64,000 nt of DNA from a virus (IMGVR_UViG_3300011862_000001:64001-128000), one strand, 5' to 3'. Counted from the first letter of the stretch, positions 51,340 through 63,760 are shown. Translations and numbers: made by a program. The notes: a model not told the origin generated them from the letters alone.

Positions 51340-52639
51340 GTTTATTCCCCCGGAACCAGCGACCCCGGTTCTCAACCAACCTCAGGATGGGGTGAAAGAA
51401 AAGACTAACATCGTCACCAACCCGGAACGGACCACGGTGGTCGATATGGAGCGGGTGCCTAAAACCCAGATGCTCCAGTTTGTTGAAGGGTCGTCCTGGA
51501 CTATTCTTAACTGGTACCGCTCGTTAAAAGGCAAGAACGACCCCAAACAGTTGTTCGACCCGAAAGTGGAAAACCCGACCCAACAGTTCGATTGTATCCA
51601 CAACCTTGAGCTGCGTGTCACCTCACCGCTTGAGCGTAGTCAGGATGGGGAAAACAAAACCTATACTCTGACGGGTTCGGCAACCGTGGTCAACTCGGTG
51701 CCGGTAAACGAAGCCGATTTATTCACCGCCACTATCGGCGATGGTCGTATCGGTCTTTTTACCGTGACCGCGTCGATGCGCCCGTCCAACAACAAAATCT
51801 CGACCTACCAGATAGAGTACGGGATGTTGTTTGAGCTCACCGAGTTCCACCAACGCATTCTGAACCAGTGTACGGTGCGTGAGTTCTACTACATCAAAGA
51901 GCGCGCCTACACCAACAGTGACACGCTGCTCAGTCCGAATGAGTATCGTCAGTTCCTGCAAGTCGGTGAGTATTTAAAAGCCATTGAAGAAACCTACGTC
52001 AAGCGCTTTTATAATGCCGATGCACAGACGCTGTTGTACCCCAACCAAACCTGGGGTTACGCCTACGATGTGTTCCTGGCGCTCTTCGTCCGTGACATTG
52101 GACTTAAGATGGTTGGCAAGGACATTCGTATCTATCCGCATCAGCGTACCAACGTCAAAGACGTGGAAACCCTGTTCTCGCTTATCATCAAACAAAGCGC
52201 GTTGTTCTTAAGTGATGCTAACCGGGTTAACCGGCCGTATCTCACCAGTTCGTTTCGCACGTTGCAAACCAGCAACAGTGTGGCCTGGTCGAAGATTGAG
52301 GTGACACGCTTCTTTGATGAAGACATGCCACAGGCACAGCGGGAAGGGAACTGGGAGCCGTTCACGGCGTTTGCCCCGACGCTTTATAAGCTTGCGGGCA
52401 GTGGCGATGAGCTGCCGTTGTTCAACCCGATAACCTATACCCCGTACGTGCTCTCTGAGGCGTTCTATAACGGCGGCTACACGTCGGTGTTGGAATACGC
52501 AGTGATGCTCTACCTTACCAATAAACCACTCTCCAGCGAGCTCGCAGTGGCCTTAGCGGCCGAGGTACACAAACTGCCTCGTGATAGCCAGTTCTACTAC
52601 GTGCCGTTGGTGTATGTGTTATTGAAGTATGCGAGGTAA
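51308..52639 (+). CDS. virion structural protein (neck candidate; phiKZ gp99-like by position)
   Basis: GAGGTG RBS; synteny only. Confidence 0.55.
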   Translation: MLQANGKGNTKFIPPEPATPVLNQPQDGVKEKTNIVTNPERTTVVDMERVPKTQMLQFVEGSSWTILNWYRSLKGKNDPKQLFDPKVENPTQQFDCIHNLELRVTSPLERSQDGENKTYTLTGSATVVNSVPVNEADLFTATIGDGRIGLFTVTASMRPSNNKISTYQIEYGMLFELTEFHQRILNQCTVREFYYIKERAYTNSDTLLSPNEYRQFLQVGEYLKAIEETYVKRFYNADAQTLLYPNQTWGYAYDVFLALFVRDIGLKMVGKDIRIYPHQRTNVKDVETLFSLIIKQSALFLSDANRVNRPYLTSSFRTLQTSNSVAWSKIEVTRFFDEDMPQAQREGNWEPFTAFAPTLYKLAGSGDELPLFNPITYTPYVLSEAFYNGGYTSVLEYAVMLYLTNKPLSSELAVALAAEVHKLPRDSQFYYVPLVYVLLKYAR

Positions 52640-52641
52640 GT

Positions 52642-53184
52642 ATGGCCGATAACAAAAGCGCAGCGTATTATCTCTTTCACGCCTGGGTCGGTTGGCGGAT
52701 TCCTGAGTATGCCACCATGACCCGCTTCGCCACCGAAGTCCACGGTGTGTTTTTGCCCGAAGACCGCAACAAGGCAAAGGCGCTGCTGTTGAACAAAAAG
52801 TTTGTCATGTACCGTCCGTTTGAAATCGCCGACTATGTCACCTCAGGTGGGGCGTTAGACATTAACGACCCTAACGATGCGATAAAGGTCTACGGCTGGA
52901 TTATGGAACACATGTCCAACTGGCTACACCATCTGGAAACCCCGCAGATGTTACCGAAGCCCACCCCGATGATAGGACTGCGTAAGTTCAACAACCTCGC
53001 TAACATGCTGTTCCCGGTTGCTAACCGCTACGGTTACTTTAAGAAGTCTGAGGTGACGATGTCTGGTGCGCTCCAGTCGTTGTTTACGCCTGACGTGCAA
53101 GTTGAGCAAGCCCGTCATCGGTTTAATGATACCATCATGCGCCGTATCGAAGCGGCACATCGTCGTGGCGGAGGTGTGCGATGA
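52642..53184 (+). CDS. conserved hypothetical protein (180 aa)
   Basis: GAGGT RBS; in operon. Confidence 0.7.
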   Translation: MADNKSAAYYLFHAWVGWRIPEYATMTRFATEVHGVFLPEDRNKAKALLLNKKFVMYRPFEIADYVTSGGALDINDPNDAIKVYGWIMEHMSNWLHHLETPQMLPKPTPMIGLRKFNNLANMLFPVANRYGYFKKSEVTMSGALQSLFTPDVQVEQARHRFNDTIMRRIEAAHRRGGGVR

Positions 53185-55333: not shown

Positions 55334-55366
55334 ATACCTGATCTCTTCGGAGGTCAGGTATCCTTT
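55334..55366 (+). terminator. intrinsic terminator
   Basis: ATACCTGATCTC-TTCG-GAGGTCAGGTAT. Confidence 0.8.
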
Positions 55367-55485
55367 AATTTAAATGGCCTATACGGCTTTGCGTAAGATG
55401 GACAGGTGATTTATCCTCTTAGTGGATAAAGCCGCTTAGAATGCGTTCTAGAGCGTTTTAAGGCTATATACGACGCAGATCGATT

Positions 55486-55518
55486 AAAAAAGATTTCAGA
55501 TATATATTACTTAGGTGA
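55486..55518 (+). promoter_or_regulatory. strong early promoter heading the cassette array
   Basis: Exact phiKZ-type TATATTAC (55503-55510), then N4-GTGA, with upstream A tract. Confidence 0.8.
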
Positions 55519-55567
55519 GAGTAAAGTATTAAACCCCTTTAAACATTGACCATCAAGGAATATTATC

Positions 55568-55843
55568 ATGGAAATTACTTCTAAATCTACTGCCTCTAAA
55601 TCCCAGAACAAAATCGCTGTTCAGGTTGACATGGTTATCGACAACATGCCGGTTAGCTTCGACATGAAGTTTATCGAAGACGAGAGCGGTGCACCGACTG
55701 CGGTTATGACCCTGACCCAACCGGGTGTGGATATTGCCGTCCACAGTCAAGTGGTGTGGGATTATCCTGCTGCCCTGAACATGATGGTACGTGTGTACAA
55801 ATCAGGCGAAGCCCTGGTTCACAACATCCACCACGCATTCTAA
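55568..55843 (+). CDS. early hypothetical protein (91 aa)
   Basis: Leader repeat with RBS; first gene after the early promoter. Confidence 0.8.
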   Translation: MEITSKSTASKSQNKIAVQVDMVIDNMPVSFDMKFIEDESGAPTAVMTLTQPGVDIAVHSQVVWDYPAALNMMVRVYKSGEALVHNIHHAF

Positions 55844-55868
55844 TCGTCTAGCCTTACGGAGAGCTACC

Positions 55869-56243
55869 ATGAATACTGAACAACGTGAACGTCTGACTAT
55901 CCTGCGTGCTAATCAAGCAGCACGTCGTGCAGCAATTCTGGCTGCTAACCAACCGCCTGAACCGGTTCGCATGACCGACGAACAGCGGGTACGTTTAGAA
56001 GAGCTGCGTGCGATTCGTGCCGAGCGTCAAAAGGCTACCCCGGCTGTGGTGTGCGAACCACCACGTAAGCCTGTGGCACCGGTGCGTATCACAGCCGAAC
56101 AACGCCAGCGGTTAGAAGAACTGCGCGCTGCCCGTGCTGCTCGTGAACAAGATATTGAAGCCGAGATTCTCAATGGCCCAGAGCTCATTGCAGAATTGAC
56201 GAGCCTGGTATTAAACACCCGCGAATTACTGCGTAACAACTAA
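55869..56243 (+). CDS. early protein with three T.EQR.RL..LRA repeats
   Basis: GGAG RBS before ATG 55869; internal repeats visible. Confidence 0.8.
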   Translation: MNTEQRERLTILRANQAARRAAILAANQPPEPVRMTDEQRVRLEELRAIRAERQKATPAVVCEPPRKPVAPVRITAEQRQRLEELRAARAAREQDIEAEILNGPELIAELTSLVLNTRELLRNN

Positions 56244-56281
56244 TCCACCCTTTTACTTAATTGACTATCAAGGAATACATC

Positions 56282-56833
56282 ATGAAAATCATCAACAAAA
56301 ACACCAACGTTATCACCGGCAACCTGGTAAAAACTATCCAGCCGAAATACTCTGCCTTCGTTGTGCAGGTGTACGATAACGTCATCACCATCCTTTATGG
56401 TGACGAACTGATTGCGTATCAGAACATCGACCACGATGCTCAAGACCGCGAGATTGAACTGGTGCAAGCCATGGATAGCGCCTACCGTAAAGCGGCACTG
56501 TTCCTGACCCTGAATAACCCGTTCTGTCTGAGCGCGCTGTATCGCCATATCGTGCGTCACTACACCGCCGACTCGGTTAAGCCGACCGTGTGGCCAAGCG
56601 ACAAGCATTACCTGCGTGGCATTATTAACATGACCACCCGGGCGAACGATATCGCACTGCCGGCTATCAGTGAAACCGAACTTGCCGATAGCACAGAGAA
56701 AGAATTCACCCTGTGCATCAGCCGCGACGGTCGCCTGTATACCCCAGACGGCACCAGCTTCCAGATTGAACTGGCGAATATCCTGACCAACCTCACAGTG
56801 GTAGGTCGTCCGGAATTAACGCCAAACTACTAA
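56282..56833 (+). CDS. early hypothetical protein, paralog A
   Basis: Leader repeat; shares TEKEFTLC, DGTSFQIE and GRPEL with 57181-57741. Confidence 0.85.
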   Translation: MKIINKNTNVITGNLVKTIQPKYSAFVVQVYDNVITILYGDELIAYQNIDHDAQDREIELVQAMDSAYRKAALFLTLNNPFCLSALYRHIVRHYTADSVKPTVWPSDKHYLRGIINMTTRANDIALPAISETELADSTEKEFTLCISRDGRLYTPDGTSFQIELANILTNLTVVGRPELTPNY

Positions 56834-56883
56834 TCGTAATCGGGGGGTCTAGCGCCCCCCATCGACTATCAAGGAATATTATC

Positions 56884-57138
56884 ATGGCCCTGACGCTGAC
56901 TGCTCGTACCACTGCTAACCTGTCTCGTATCGCTGAAAACTGCGAATCCGTTTCCCGTGCCTGTGCCGCAATGATGAGCACCTCGAAAAAGAGCACGCTG
57001 CTTAGCGAAGAACAAATGACGAAAATCGAAGCCACGAATGCGCTGTTCGAACAGTACGTGGCGGCGAACAAAGCCGGTGACTATGCCCTGGCACAACGCC
57101 TGTCCATCCGCTGGATGGCAGCAACCGCTGCACTGTAA
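56884..57138 (+). CDS. early hypothetical helical protein (84 aa)
   Basis: Leader repeat with RBS. Confidence 0.8.
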   Translation: MALTLTARTTANLSRIAENCESVSRACAAMMSTSKKSTLLSEEQMTKIEATNALFEQYVAANKAGDYALAQRLSIRWMAATAAL

Positions 57139-57180
57139 GACAACCCCCTTTCCCCCAAAAAGACTATCAAGGAACGCATC

Positions 57181-57741
57181 ATGAAAACTATCGAAACCAA
57201 AGCAATCAACTTCCGTGGCGATATCGTAGAAATCATCATCCCGAAATTCTCATCGTTCGTTGTAACGGTTAAAGAAGGTGGCGTCTCGATTAACTTCGCC
57301 GGTACCATCATTGGCCAGAAGCACATCAATACCGTGGGTCATGACGAAGACTTCGCCCGTCAGGTCGCGCTCGATACCGCGTATCGTGAAGCCATGGTGT
57401 GGTTGCTCATCAATGAGCGTTTCACGGTGCAAGCACTGTACCGTCATCTGGTACGCGCCACTTCCGACGGTCTGGTTGAGCCAGAAATGATTAACAGTGT
57501 CGCTGACCATGTGACCGGTATCATGAAGCTCACCAGCAAAGCCAACGACGTGACCATGCGTCTGCTGAGTGAAGTCGAACTCAACGATGCCACCGAAAAA
57601 GAATTCACCCTGTGCTTAACCCACGGCGGTGAAATCTTCACGCACGACGGCACCAGCTTCCAGATTGAAATGTTAAACGTATTGACAGGTTTGCCGGTAC
57701 TGGGTCGCCCAGAACTGAGCGACGTTGCCACCACCCACTAA
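57181..57741 (+). CDS. early hypothetical protein, paralog B
   Basis: Leader repeat; paralog of 56282-56833. Confidence 0.85.
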   Translation: MKTIETKAINFRGDIVEIIIPKFSSFVVTVKEGGVSINFAGTIIGQKHINTVGHDEDFARQVALDTAYREAMVWLLINERFTVQALYRHLVRATSDGLVEPEMINSVADHVTGIMKLTSKANDVTMRLLSEVELNDATEKEFTLCLTHGGEIFTHDGTSFQIEMLNVLTGLPVLGRPELSDVATTH

Positions 57742-57789
57742 TAAAAACTCGGGGGGCAACCGCCCCCATCGACTTTCAAGGACTATCTC

Positions 57790-57930
57790 ATGACTTCTGC
57801 ACACAAACGTTCTATCAAAGCAATCATCATCTTCGTGGTACTGGCTTGTGGTTTCATCACCATGTCTCAGGACTACAACACCTGCCGGAACAACGGCAAC
57901 TCTGTGGCTATGTGCACAGGACGCAGCTAA
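57790..57930 (+). CDS. 46-aa single-pass membrane protein (not in the ORF track)
   Basis: MTSAHKRSIKAIIIFVVLACGFITMSQDYNTCRNNGNSVAMCTGRS; leader repeat RBS; TAATG coupling to the next ORF. Confidence 0.8.
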   Translation: MTSAHKRSIKAIIIFVVLACGFITMSQDYNTCRNNGNSVAMCTGRS

Positions 57931-58115
57931 TGACATTCACCGACCAACAGTTTTCCGAGTTCTTAAACAACCCACGCCAGAAACGCGAATGGGACAACTT
58001 CTCAAACGGCGTGAAACACCGTCTCCAGCCGGACGACGTCGTGGTTCATGTGACCGCCCAGGTTACGTTGCTTGATGTGGATACCGCATCACTTCAAACC
58101 TGCGACCTTTATTAA
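57930..58115 (+). CDS. early hypothetical protein (61 aa)
   Basis: ATG overlaps previous stop; AGGA RBS; terminator follows. Confidence 0.7.
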   Translation: MTFTDQQFSEFLNNPRQKREWDNFSNGVKHRLQPDDVVVHVTAQVTLLDVDTASLQTCDLY

Positions 58116-58120
58116 ACCGT

Positions 58121-58146
58121 GCCACCTTCGGGTGGCTTTATTTTTT
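58121..58146 (+). terminator. intrinsic terminator
   Basis: GCCACC-TTCG-GGTGGC and T tract. Confidence 0.88.
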
Positions 58147-58167
58147 GTAACCCTCAAGGATCAAATT

Positions 58168-58875
58168 ATGTTAACCTTAGCCCACTTCAACCTGCGCACC
58201 GTGTTTCCTCGCTTAAACGGCAAGTACGAGACCGTGTTGCAATCGGAACACTTTCACCTTCAACGGGTTGAAAACGAACACAACGTCTACTTTCTTATCT
58301 CTGATAACGAAGGCAATTCCTTAGGCGGGGGTTGTGTGGAAAAACGTGAAGGCGATGAGCGCATTCGTGGGTCAGCCTACACCACCATGGGCCGGGCGAT
58401 GTCTACCGTTCTCGTTACCCTGCCCGATGTCGAAACCCGCCTGGCACGCCTTGCTGAACTGGTGGAGATGGTCAAACAACTCACCGGACTTGCGGATTAT
58501 AGCGACCTGCGTATTGCCGCCCGTGTCGACGGTGAAGGCCAGGTTAAACTGGAGATGGGCAAGCTCTCGGGTAACGACACGATAGCCGCCGCCTCTGAAC
58601 TCTGGCACGTCTATCCAACCTTTAGCGAGATTACCGTCAAAAGCAAATACGAAGACATCCAGCTCGAGCTAATGGCCTTCTGGGGCATTGAGAAAATCCA
58701 AGCTACCGTTACCCTTAACCGTGGCGATTATGTCTTGTCACGCAAATGCAAGGTCGGCTTTGCCGCCGACTACACCGCTGAAATCGATGCGGCACTCACG
58801 GAGTTCGCAGCCGTCGTTGAGCGCATTCCCCATCCCCCGATTCCTGAGGAAAACCAAAATGAAACTATGGAATAA
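58168..58875 (+). CDS. hypothetical protein (235 aa)
   Basis: TCAAGGA RBS before ATG 58168. Confidence 0.75.
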   Translation: MLTLAHFNLRTVFPRLNGKYETVLQSEHFHLQRVENEHNVYFLISDNEGNSLGGGCVEKREGDERIRGSAYTTMGRAMSTVLVTLPDVETRLARLAELVEMVKQLTGLADYSDLRIAARVDGEGQVKLEMGKLSGNDTIAAASELWHVYPTFSEITVKSKYEDIQLELMAFWGIEKIQATVTLNRGDYVLSRKCKVGFAADYTAEIDAALTEFAAVVERIPHPPIPEENQNETME

Positions 58876-61477: not shown

Positions 61478-63760
61478 ATGAAAGAAACTCGTATCTCCAA
61501 TATGGAGAAGCTGATTGAGCAGGGTAGCCAACTCGTTGCCAATGCGTCAGTACAGCAATCCACTAAAGACCTGTGGTCTACTCTCGTCGCACGCGAATCT
61601 ATCCGCACTGACGTACGTAACTTCGATCAGGTAGCGACCTCAGCTGACCAGGCATACGCTAACGTATTCCCGGGCCGCACGATGTCTCACGCTGCCCGTA
61701 CTGCTTCTGCCATCATCCTGGCGGCGCAGGGTAACGAAGATGAGTTCTTAGCTAAACCGGCGCGCGAATCCTCTGCTAAAGAGTGGGCGGGCGCAATGGA
61801 AACGGCTATCCCTGGCGCACACGCGCTGAACGCTGACTACGGTAAAACGCCGCTGGTTGCGACTGAGTATTACACCAACAAAGACCTGGACAAAAACCTG
61901 GGCCTGACTTGGACGCTGAACGTACGTGCACTGGAAACCCAGTCTGCGTTCGCAGAAAAACTGTTCCCGACTATCACCGTTGAAACGAACGACGTTGGTA
62001 TCACTGTGCGTACCAAAATCACCACCGTTACTCGTGGTATTCTGAACGCGCTGCTGAGCAAAGATAGCGTGCTGGACGATCGTAAACCGCTGCACAACGC
62101 GTTGACCGACCACACCGTACTGCAAGACGACGCTATCCGCATCGTGCCGTACGTAATGGAAACTGGTGAGAACAGCGAGTTCTTCATCAGCGAAAGCGTT
62201 ATCGAGAACGAAACCGTGCGTCTGGGCCGTGTGCCGTCTTACCCGACCAACTATCTGGATATTAAGAAAGAGAAAGGCAACCTGTTCCGTCTTTCTGCGC
62301 ATCCTGGTATCGTGGCTGAAGGTTACGACGAAACTGACGAAATCGCACCGGGTGCTGCGCTGGGTGGTCTGCTGATCTCCGTACGCAAACCGGGCGATGC
62401 CGTTGAAGACGGTTCCATGATCAAGCTGGCAACTCGCGACATGCAGTTTGCTACCTTCCAGCGTCCTCCAGAAGGTGAAGGTCGTGAGCTGGTACTGCAA
62501 TTCCGTCGTACCCAGTTTGCACTGAACGGCAAGTCCCTGGACTGGAAAGGTAAAGACATTCCGGCTCTGGCTGCACTTCAGCAGAACAAATACACCCTGC
62601 GTTACGTGATCAGTATCTCCATGAGCCTGTTCACTAACGGCCAGCGTTCTGGCCAGTACGACATCTCCGGCGCTCGCCTGGATGTTGAAGCACTGGTTGA
62701 TGCTGCGGGTAACGAAGTGTCAATGGAAAGCGGCGTGGGTAAAACCATCCGTGACAACCTGAAACTGGAACTCCTGGGCTGGAAATTCGACGGTACTCGT
62801 ACCAACGAAAACCGGAGAAGCCAGGGTCTTCTGCTTGACCCAGTTTGGGAGCAGGAGAACTACAAACTCCAGTACGGTTCACCGATGATGACCAAACAGC
62901 CTGTTGGTCAGGAATACGATGACGCTGAGCGTCTGGATGACCTGGTTTCTGCGGTTAACATCCGTAACGAAATGCTGGCCATCACTCAGACTCTGAGCTA
63001 CACCGATGCGGTGAAACAAGCGGTTGACACCCTGGTTACTCAGTGGGATAAATCTGCAATCCGTGGTCTGGGCCGTCACTGGGTGCGTCCGTGGTTCGAA
63101 GAAGCTGATTTCAACGTTGATGAAATCGTTCAGTCTCTGGAAACCAAAGATGCGCTGATTAACGCCCGTCAGGCGCTGCTGCAACGTATCGCTGACCAGG
63201 TAACTCGTGCAATCCAGGACAGCCGCTACATGCCGGCTCTGCGTCTGCTGACCTCCAACCCGCAAGCGACTCCGAAAGTCATCATCGCGACCGATGAACC
63301 GACTGCCGCAATGTTGCTGCTTCAGGTTGGCGAAACTCGTCTGCTGGGCGACCGCTACGAATACGAAGTGGTTACCACCAACGATGACCGCTGGCGTATC
63401 AAGAACGAGGCCGATGGTTCCTGGACTCGTCGTCTGCAATGGGTGCTGAAAGTTGAAGGCACTGATGAAGGTTCTTACTGTGTTCTGAACTGGGGTAACC
63501 ACTTCTGGTCTCCGATCATGGTAACCAACATCAACATCCAGCGTAACGGCGCGACCTCTAAAGAACTGGCTGTGCAGCCGCGCAACGCGCATATCTGCCA
63601 CTGCCCGGTTACTGGCCTGTTCTGGGTTAAAGGTATCACCGATCTGGTTGCTAAGAAACTGGCTTACAACATCACTGGTCTGGCTAATGGTCAGGCAACC
63701 ACTCCTGGCGGCAACGCTGGTGACGTAGGTGGTGCTGCTCCGGCTCCGGCTGGTCAGTAA
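61478..63760 (+). CDS. major capsid protein (phiKZ gp120 / SPN3US gp75-like)
   Basis: 760 aa; propeptide with ARE|S sites and ATE at residue 130; FAEKLFPTI, RTNENRRSQG, QPRNAHI; extreme codon bias; strong terminator. Confidence 0.92.
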   Translation: MKETRISNMEKLIEQGSQLVANASVQQSTKDLWSTLVARESIRTDVRNFDQVATSADQAYANVFPGRTMSHAARTASAIILAAQGNEDEFLAKPARESSAKEWAGAMETAIPGAHALNADYGKTPLVATEYYTNKDLDKNLGLTWTLNVRALETQSAFAEKLFPTITVETNDVGITVRTKITTVTRGILNALLSKDSVLDDRKPLHNALTDHTVLQDDAIRIVPYVMETGENSEFFISESVIENETVRLGRVPSYPTNYLDIKKEKGNLFRLSAHPGIVAEGYDETDEIAPGAALGGLLISVRKPGDAVEDGSMIKLATRDMQFATFQRPPEGEGRELVLQFRRTQFALNGKSLDWKGKDIPALAALQQNKYTLRYVISISMSLFTNGQRSGQYDISGARLDVEALVDAAGNEVSMESGVGKTIRDNLKLELLGWKFDGTRTNENRRSQGLLLDPVWEQENYKLQYGSPMMTKQPVGQEYDDAERLDDLVSAVNIRNEMLAITQTLSYTDAVKQAVDTLVTQWDKSAIRGLGRHWVRPWFEEADFNVDEIVQSLETKDALINARQALLQRIADQVTRAIQDSRYMPALRLLTSNPQATPKVIIATDEPTAAMLLLQVGETRLLGDRYEYEVVTTNDDRWRIKNEADGSWTRRLQWVLKVEGTDEGSYCVLNWGNHFWSPIMVTNINIQRNGATSKELAVQPRNAHICHCPVTGLFWVKGITDLVAKKLAYNITGLANGQATTPGGNAGDVGGAAPAPAGQ

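Follow-up and report, generated by a model that had tools for sequence, protein, structure and literature searches.

A start-associated leader of early accessory genes in an SPN3US-like jumbo phage and its relatives

A short leader of nearly constant sequence precedes five of the seven small genes of an early operon in the stretch of phage DNA analyzed here (IMGVR_UViG_3300011862_000001:64001-128000; 64,000 nucleotides (nt), hereafter the window). Our comparisons suggest that this leader is probably a clade-wide, start-associated element controlling early accessory genes of SPN3US-like jumbo phages at the RNA level, and that its use as a recombination junction is secondary. The window corresponds to bases 64001-128000 of a genome of 236,909 bp (237 kb) with 51% G+C, which belongs to an SPN3US-like myovirus, and genes for RNA polymerase (RNAP) beta-like subunits are present in the same window. 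The nearest public relatives were jumbo phages of Erwinia and Salmonella from the SPN3US-like group, with Machinavirus closest, followed by Wellingtonvirus, Seoulvirus and Erskinevirus. Scans of IMG/VR and JGI for further relatives returned only Caitlin and ChrisDB, or nothing, and closer relatives were represented in Logan contigs by four proteins of 56-91% identity, among them paralogs at 85-91%.

The leader motif and its conservation

Each copy of the leader may be described as a G-poor tract followed by a GACYAT box, the Shine-Dalgarno (SD) core AAGGA, an A/U-rich spacer of 7-8 nt and the AUG. A sequence-only reading of the window had pointed out near-identical leaders before five of the seven small genes, and all five were recovered in place: the pattern GACYWTCAAGGA had 5 matches in the window, at 55548-57782 on the + strand, in comparison to 0.01 expected from shuffled sequences. 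The five 12-nt cores start at 55548, 56263, 56864, 57162 and 57771 and the corresponding ATGs are located at 55568, 56282, 56884, 57181 and 57790, so that the core starts 19-20 nt before the ATG and ends 7-8 nt from it. In the whole genome we found 10 exact copies of the core, all on the coding strand and each 19-20 nt ahead of an ATG; with one mismatch allowed the number of copies rose to 18, 16 of them ahead of a start codon. Four relatives contained 22 exact copies, again all on the coding strand, and a control pattern had zero matches.

The same reading had considered that the motif might be just the ribosome-binding context preferred throughout the genome. A genome scan indicated otherwise, as the majority of genes have TAAGGAG-type sites and GACYATC is missing upstream of many AAGGA sites; the leader is not the general ribosome site of this genome. 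GACYATC alone was rejected as the signal, being common inside genes (75 matches on the + strand and 36 on the - strand). No copy of the leader was present in E. coli K-12, and host mimicry was therefore rejected. A literal search of the literature for the motif returned only unrelated primers and no description of it.

To assess conservation, the paralogous gene of the operon was aligned over six loci together with the leaders on either side of it. Pairwise identity was 95% in the 12-nt core, in comparison to 69%, 78% and 51% for the first, second and third codon positions and 42% for the 20 nt upstream of the core. The 7 nt located 5ʹ of the SD were more conserved than second codon positions, across lineages whose proteins share 40-60% identity. 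The leader of a 223-amino acid (aa) gene at genome position 34417 was kept in orthologs with 74% amino acid identity, and the GACTAT before the 46-aa gene family was kept in Machina, pEa_SNUABM_6 (SNU6), pSal-SNUABM-04, Wellington and SPN3US. This pattern indicates that the leader is under selection.

In more distant genera the box was found separated from the SD. SPN3US carries the element (consensus ~ATCGACYAT) in eight early leaders, 6-7 nt 5ʹ of AAGGAG and often directly behind the 5ʹ-terminal hairpin of the message, and in early leaders of Erskinevirus (Asesino/phiEaH2) and Wellingtonvirus the distance between GACYAT and the SD was 3-8 nt. Because SPN3US, Erskinevirus and Wellingtonvirus place GACYAT 3-8 nt from the SD, we regard it as a distinct box, which in the Machinavirus lineage and in the phage studied here appears to have become fused to the SD. 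The box was retained before unrelated genes in several genera, with genus-specific spacing.

The AAGGA part forms pairs with the 16S rRNA 3ʹ end, and GACYAUC lies 5ʹ of it, beyond the 16S end. Pairing of the box elsewhere in 16S rRNA was considered and rejected: the best match, at 794-809, had 7-8 pairs including G-U, it was equaled by 460 of 500 shuffles, and the GACCAUC variant had none. A search of the same genome for an anti-leader small RNA returned as complements only the opposite strand of the leaders themselves and otherwise 8-9-mers at chance level. Rfam contained no family for the region, with two sub-threshold chance hits on the opposite strand.

Early promoters and the composition of early leaders

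Early promoters were mapped with a 22-nt consensus, allowing up to 5 mismatches and using shuffles as control. There were 18 such sites in the genome, in comparison to 0-2 in the shuffles, all on the + strand and mostly just upstream of a gene start, and the promoter element was also conserved in the relatives. The operon studied here was indeed headed by an early promoter, as proposed from the sequence: the site at 55498-55519 is a perfect match to the genome consensus, and its core was 95% identical in Erwinia and Salmonella jumbo phages.

Genes with the motif were located no more than 2.5 kb downstream of an early promoter in 14 of 15 cases, in comparison to 50 of the 179 other + strand genes (Fisher p = 7e-7). 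The same distance applied to 15 of the 16 start-linked copies of this genome (binomial p = 8e-11), and the link was equally strong in three Machinavirus relatives, ChrisDB, pEa_SNUABM_9 (SNU9) and pEa_SNUABM_4 (SNU4), with binomial p values of 6e-8, 3e-9 and 3e-8. Five to seven copies per genome belonged to first genes close behind the promoter (within 75 nt). Six motif genes of this genome were first genes, with the ATG 63-76 nt from the promoter start, and outside the studied locus 10 of the 12 copies in the four relatives stood directly behind an early promoter. The leader accompanied mainly the promoters with the best consensus. The suggestion that it marks co-regulated genes is in agreement with its restriction to early-promoter operons in four genomes and with its conservation above that of coding sequence.

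The RNAP beta-like subunit genes possess an early-type promoter but not the box. The box is thus not a general early enhancer, core early genes being without it. Sigma-70-like sites were not in excess in the leaders (3 vs 2.6 expected), and the internal leaders had no promoter. An identity of the box with the promoter of the non-virion RNAP (nvRNAP) was rejected as well: there was no box before the ~760-aa gene at window position 61478, which encodes the major capsid protein according to the syntenic annotation of ChrisDB, and the published late (nvRNAP) motif of jumbo phages is TATG (PMC7598289).

We also noticed two flavors of early promoters. Class I (…ATATATTACYTAGGTGAG) is located ahead of accessory genes, usually together with the leader, and class II (…AGATATTATYTTAGTGAA) includes sites before conserved genes and is mostly without it; examples in whole-genome coordinates (G000:C1) are 119498, 169514 and 211003 vs 34353, 78226 and 127846. 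Early transcripts seem to begin with a hairpin of variable sequence, with the promoter-proximal GTGAGA as its 5ʹ arm and then a short U-run (G000:C1 50567-50588, 148146-148167 and 211025-211046; window 55515-55545). This hairpin was present also in the relatives and in SPN3US and may be involved in 5ʹ-end protection or in transcription attenuation.

Just 5ʹ of the early promoter of the operon, at window 55400-55480, we noticed a conserved block of non-coding DNA, in which AGAGCGTT-like repeats occur two or three times. It was kept syntenically in ChrisDB, Caitlin, SNU9, Machina, Wellington and SPN3US, where the flanking proteins are 50-67% identical, and it could represent an operator or a small RNA; it had no match in Rfam. 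In SNU4, SNU6 and pSal-SNUABM-04 the block and the promoter are separated by ~380 nt of inserted sequence, in which an open reading frame (ORF) of 134-137 aa is annotated. The 'putative DNA ligase' of pSal-SNUABM-04 corresponds to a 134-aa ORF whose start falls inside the conserved block, and its annotation looks doubtful.

Among other early genes, a leader-bearing gene at G000:C1 153356-153706 encodes a 116-aa helix-turn-helix protein (PF01381, phrog_7126), a candidate early regulator. A 600-aa early protein was checked as a possible chimallin by a PDB sequence search, which gave no match. Outside the window, at G000:C1 ~52600-52720, there is an extremely AT-rich segment with inverted repeats, located in a 1.3-kb gap without called genes.

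The operon and gene turnover around the leaders

The operon extends from the promoter at 55498-55519 to the terminator at 58121-58146 and includes seven genes, for proteins of 91, 124, 183, 84, 186, 46 and 61 aa. Its features, together with the hairpin that closes the preceding gene, are as follows (window coordinates):

55334..55361, + strand: terminator-like hairpin at the end of the preceding 266-aa gene (phrog_8163); hairpin prediction and PHROG family
55498..55519, + strand: class-I early promoter, phiKZ-type virion RNAP; perfect match to the genome consensus
55548..55570, + strand: leader 1 in the 5ʹ untranslated region (UTR) of the first gene; box, AAGGA, 8-nt spacer, ATG
55568..55843, + strand: 91-aa ORFan; no PHROG and no tblastn match in the phage collection
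55869..56243, + strand: ORFan of 124 aa, internally repeated; no leader but a GGAG site of its own
56263..56284, + strand: leader 2, predicted unstructured
56282..56833, + strand: paralog A, 183 aa, phrog_30672, the divergent copy
56842..56860, + strand: G-run/C-run hairpin 1, no T-run after it; kept after the paralog in relatives
56864..56886, + strand: leader 3
56884..57138, + strand: 84-aa gene, homolog of Caitlin gp75 in the same slot; pairwise E 8e-12, not significant at database level
57162..57183, + strand: leader 4, predicted unstructured
57181..57741, + strand: paralog B, 186 aa, phrog_30672; resembles an ortholog, with 57-63% identity to relatives
57749..57772, + strand: G-run/C-run hairpin 2
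57771..57792, + strand: leader 5
57790..57930, + strand: 46-aa membrane-type peptide gene, phrog_8574
57930..58115, + strand: 61-aa gene, phrog_14868; start overlaps the stop of the 46-aa gene, no leader
58121..58146, + strand: intrinsic-terminator-like hairpin and T-run ending the operon

Two genes do not carry the leader: the 61-aa gene, apparently because its start overlaps the stop of the 46-aa gene, to which it would be translationally coupled, and the 124-aa gene, apparently because it has its own GGAG site. The 91-, 124- and 84-aa genes are ORFans, with no significant matches in searches of the phage collection and databases. The 124-aa ORFan (55869-56243) contains three internal repeats of an EQR..RLEELRA..RA-type helix motif, and searches of PHROGs, Pfam and the phage collection gave no homolog of it. 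For the phrog_30672 paralogs, a PHROG of unknown function, there was no match in Pfam and no lead from the ESM Atlas.

Paralogs A and B were 42% identical (E 3e-53), and the recurrence of the tandem unit, proposed to be about 900 bp, was measured as 899 bp (56263 to 57162). An all-against-all BLAST detected no mutual similarity among the 91-, 84- and 46-aa genes, which bears out the claim that the genes behind the two hairpin-associated leaders, 84 and 46 aa, are unrelated. The leaders are the sole remaining identity between neighboring cistrons. We suggest that the array is a hyperplastic early operon, which may have grown when the phrog_30672 gene was duplicated in tandem, long ago, and when ORFans were acquired.

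The G-run/C-run hairpins precede two of the five leaders, 3 and 5, with predicted energies of -14.9 and -14.8 kcal/mol, and no T-run follows them; leaders 2 and 4 have no hairpin and were predicted to be fully open. The division into two leader subtypes was retained only in part. The hairpin subtype was conserved in relatives, with one compensatory pair, whereas the 'CCCTTT' taken as the mark of the other is not a conserved motif and belongs to the G-poor, pyrimidine-rich tract 5ʹ of the box, which has low information content.

Neither the content nor the order of genes at the locus was shared among the relatives. The stretch between the conserved 266-aa gene and a helicase differed in each lineage compared: ChrisDB has a 61-aa gene, the paralog, the hairpin and the 46-aa gene, and Caitlin has the paralog, the hairpin, gp75 and the 46-aa gene. 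The gp75 of Caitlin, homologous to the 84-aa gene of the window, took over the hairpin-leader, and the 46-aa gene there has a different ribosome site. Machina has no paralog, and pEa_SNUABM_4 differs from it by a 610-nt paralog-plus-hairpin unit between two leader copies. The 60-aa family phrog_27029 occupied the first position after promoter, UTR and leader in three operons that differ from one another: at the studied locus in ChrisDB and SNU9, ahead of a 213-aa gene in this genome, and, in Machina and Caitlin, ahead of the 223-aa gene, which in this genome and in ChrisDB comes immediately after the leader. At ~116 kb, ChrisDB and Caitlin have promoter, UTR and leader in common and unrelated cargo. 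With regard to annotation, the start of ChrisDB gp83 (L001, 4702-4932) is placed inside the 46-aa gene and the relatives start at the overlapping ATG, and the annotated start looks doubtful.

To relate these changes to the leaders, ChrisDB and pEa_SNUABM_9 were compared over the whole genome (~85-95% DNA identity), and discontinuities of at least 100 nt were counted. There were 38 of them, and only 4 touched a leader. Two of the four are clean cases, in which a 216-aa gene and a 417-nt gene, respectively, are each located between two leaders in SNU9, and ChrisDB has one leader. These ChrisDB leaders are hybrids, with the 5ʹ flank of the first SNU9 copy and the spacer of the second, so that the junction falls inside the ATCAAGGA core. 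The third is a cargo replacement that begins at the leader, and the fourth is a whole promoter-leader-gene cassette in pEa_SNUABM_9 that is absent from ChrisDB. The identity common to leaders was 15-26 nt, and 8-10 nt at the junctions. Leaders are genuine junction sites, but they account for a minority of indels, and because they fill most intergenic gaps of these operons, some coincidence with junctions is expected. The proposal that recombination occurs at the leaders therefore stands as an evolutionary pattern of junctions, indels and reused slots, and no sign of an active shuffling system was seen. We read the junctions as deletions or duplications between short direct repeats, probably a by-product of a reused expression signal and not the work of a dedicated shuffling system.

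Possible mode of action and related systems

The explanation that we favor is that the leader is the 3ʹ module of a composite cassette, which would consist of a terminator, a class-I virion-RNAP promoter, a 5ʹ-end hairpin and the box plus SD. The leader would also be reused alone, sometimes behind a GC hairpin, ahead of internal cistrons. It would act on RNA, at the ribosome-binding site, and set the translation, perhaps also the stability, of a subset of early messages, with the box being read by a sequence-specific partner, either a phage or a host protein. Such a partner seems more plausible than a general enhancer because the box has no specific pairing with 16S rRNA and the core early genes are without the box. 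As short direct repeats, the leaders could secondarily serve as junctions for deletions, duplications and cargo replacements.

Several points weigh against this explanation. The action on RNA and the effect on translation are, like the existence of a partner, inferred from sequence patterns, and no candidate for the partner of the box was identified. Strand bias cannot alone separate a role in RNA from one in DNA, because nearly all genes are on one strand. The leader RNA was predicted to be open, and the ribosome sites of box genes were somewhat more accessible than those of other genes (0.53 vs 0.48, p = 0.03); this gain is small, and an exceptional openness of the ribosome site was rejected. 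A part of the conservation could come from repeated copying of the cassette and not from selection on each copy. Finally, the motif and promoter statistics rest on rough ORF-based gene calls made in this analysis.

An alternative, which we consider unlikely, is that leaders and cassettes are mainly recombination modules for swapping, duplicating and deleting early cargo, similar to the promoter-early stem-loop (PeSL) elements, and that in expression they do no more than any ordinary ribosome site. Throughout the clade the locus is hypervariable, and it includes the 91-, 124- and 84-aa ORFans; this alternative would account for the two hybrid-leader junctions, the leader-flanked 610-nt unit of SNU4 in comparison to Machina, the movement of phrog_27029 among three operons, the cargo swap at ~116 kb and the cassette present in SNU9 and absent from ChrisDB. 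However, 34 of the 38 discontinuities do not touch a leader, viable breakpoints are expected near leaders by default, and the identities involved are in the range of microhomology and do not indicate a dedicated site. Moreover, selection for evolvability does not account for the near-invariance of the box across genera or for its retention before conserved orthologs. An ordinary good ribosome site, inherited by duplication of cassettes and conserved through common descent, also appears hardly probable. The two paralogs, and perhaps other cassettes, did arise by duplication, and the SD core and its spacing are ordinary; yet the nucleotides 5ʹ of the SD surpassed second codon positions in conservation next to a poorly conserved upstream flank, the box was kept before unrelated genes with a spacing typical of each genus, and many other AAGGA sites of the genome are without it.

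It is rather improbable that box and hairpin form an RNA-processing signal, at which a host or phage endoribonuclease would release monocistronic units or inactivate early ribosome sites in the manner of RegB. Many copies of the box directly follow a hairpin, either that of the 5ʹ end or the GC hairpin between cistrons, and the motif is limited to ribosome sites of early messages, which are likewise the targets of RegB in T4. On the other hand, leaders 2 and 4 have no hairpin, and the box does not fit the preference of RNase E. Very improbable, in our view, is binding by host CsrA/RsmA or by ChmC, an RNA-binding protein associated with the phage nucleus. The CAAGGA fits the minimal A(N)GGA core, and the sequence-only reading had drawn attention to CsrA through its CANGGA consensus. 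CsrA sites are usually paired GGA motifs, two or more per target, presented in hairpin loops, whereas there is only one GGA per leader, and the RNA that holds it was predicted as unpaired. Only the CARGGA part agrees with the consensus from systematic evolution of ligands by exponential enrichment (SELEX), with 6 of 12 positions matching, and GACYAT, the most conserved part, is not covered by any CsrA consensus and in other genera stands apart from the GGA. Phage mRNAs are bound by ChmC close to their start codons, but in the published enhanced crosslinking and immunoprecipitation (eCLIP) data no motif was found and the peaks were centered 25-30 nt downstream of start codons (PMC11077065); binding of the leader by ChmC is not supported.

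Returning to the favored RNA-level control element, we tentatively propose, as a possibility well short of even chances, that a dedicated factor uses GACYAT as an address on the RNA and thereby picks out one class of early messages made by the virion RNAP, those of accessory or host-takeover genes, for translation, timed shut-off or decay in a selective manner. If true, this would constitute a post-transcriptional early regulon in nucleus-forming SPN3US-like phages, with a logic like that of T4 RegA/RegB and an unrelated signal. Early expression of nucleus-forming jumbo phages is understood at the promoter level only, and a conserved box at the ribosome site of one class of early messages would add a second, post-transcriptional layer. 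The box may also be of practical use, as it marks early accessory genes, likely involved in host takeover or counter-defense, and fixes start codons across the SPN3US-like clade. The leader-by-leader junctions illustrate the growth and shrinkage of tandem arrays of small early genes in these phages, and would carry the PeSL idea over to phages of a family that works without the host RNA polymerase. The cassette could serve as a compact, portable early-expression unit for engineering these phages.

Among known systems, the targets of T4 RegB and RegA are alike in that many early messages carry a short motif at their ribosome-binding site, subject to class-wide post-transcriptional control. RegB cleaves GGAG itself and RegA acts on loosely defined, AU-rich sites, whereas here a separate GACYAT box is located upstream of AAGGA. 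The part at 55498-55519 appears to fit a phiKZ-type virion-RNAP early promoter by its sequence, repetition and position: the full cassette begins, as in that type, with an AT-rich TATATTAC-type element of ~10 nt upstream of early operons. The review of these promoters (PMC7598289) deals with promoters only and describes no ribosome-site box of early genes.

The start-associated sequence (SAS) of Cluster K mycobacteriophages and its extended form (ESAS) were described by Pope et al. 2011 (PMC3203893); the SAS has 13 bp and, like the leader, is suspected of a role in translation initiation. Like the 12-nt leader core, the SAS is a short asymmetric repeat located a few bases before the starts of a subset of non-structural genes, in one orientation and mostly with ATG, and it combines an SD core with conserved positions that cannot form pairs with 16S rRNA. 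Neither occurs in the host, each is conserved before unrelated gene families in several sub-lineages, and each can have an optional upstream element, the ESAS there and the hairpin here. The sequences are unrelated, however, and the SAS occurs in siphoviruses of Mycobacterium, with other hosts, so the leader is an analog and not a member. The SAS was not tied to a virion-RNAP early promoter and no role in indels was described for it, and the ESAS inverted repeats show no RNA covariation, in contrast to the one compensatory pair of the hairpin here.

The PeSL cassettes of T4-type phages (Arbiol et al. 2010, PMC2839356) are, similarly to the leaders, repeated intergenic regulatory cassettes of hyperplastic early regions, located before ORFans, often with a polyG/polyC stem-loop and ending in an SD and start codon, and genes are inserted, deleted or replaced between relatives with junctions in the motif. 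In every PeSL copy there is a sigma-70 promoter, whereas the internal leaders have no promoter and the first copy has one of the virion-RNAP type; because this defining promoter is missing, the leader is not a PeSL. The stem-loop of the PeSL acts as a terminator or attenuator, and the hairpins here, ahead of 2 of the 5 leaders, have no T-run behind them; exchange between neighboring PeSL copies also gives rise to mini-circles. PeSL copies also share ~50-70 nt, in comparison to a repeated identity of 8-26 nt here, and the conserved part here is the ribosome-site box and not the promoter. By this comparison the leader is a member of neither family, with the SAS being nearest to it in appearance and the PeSL nearest in evolutionary behavior.

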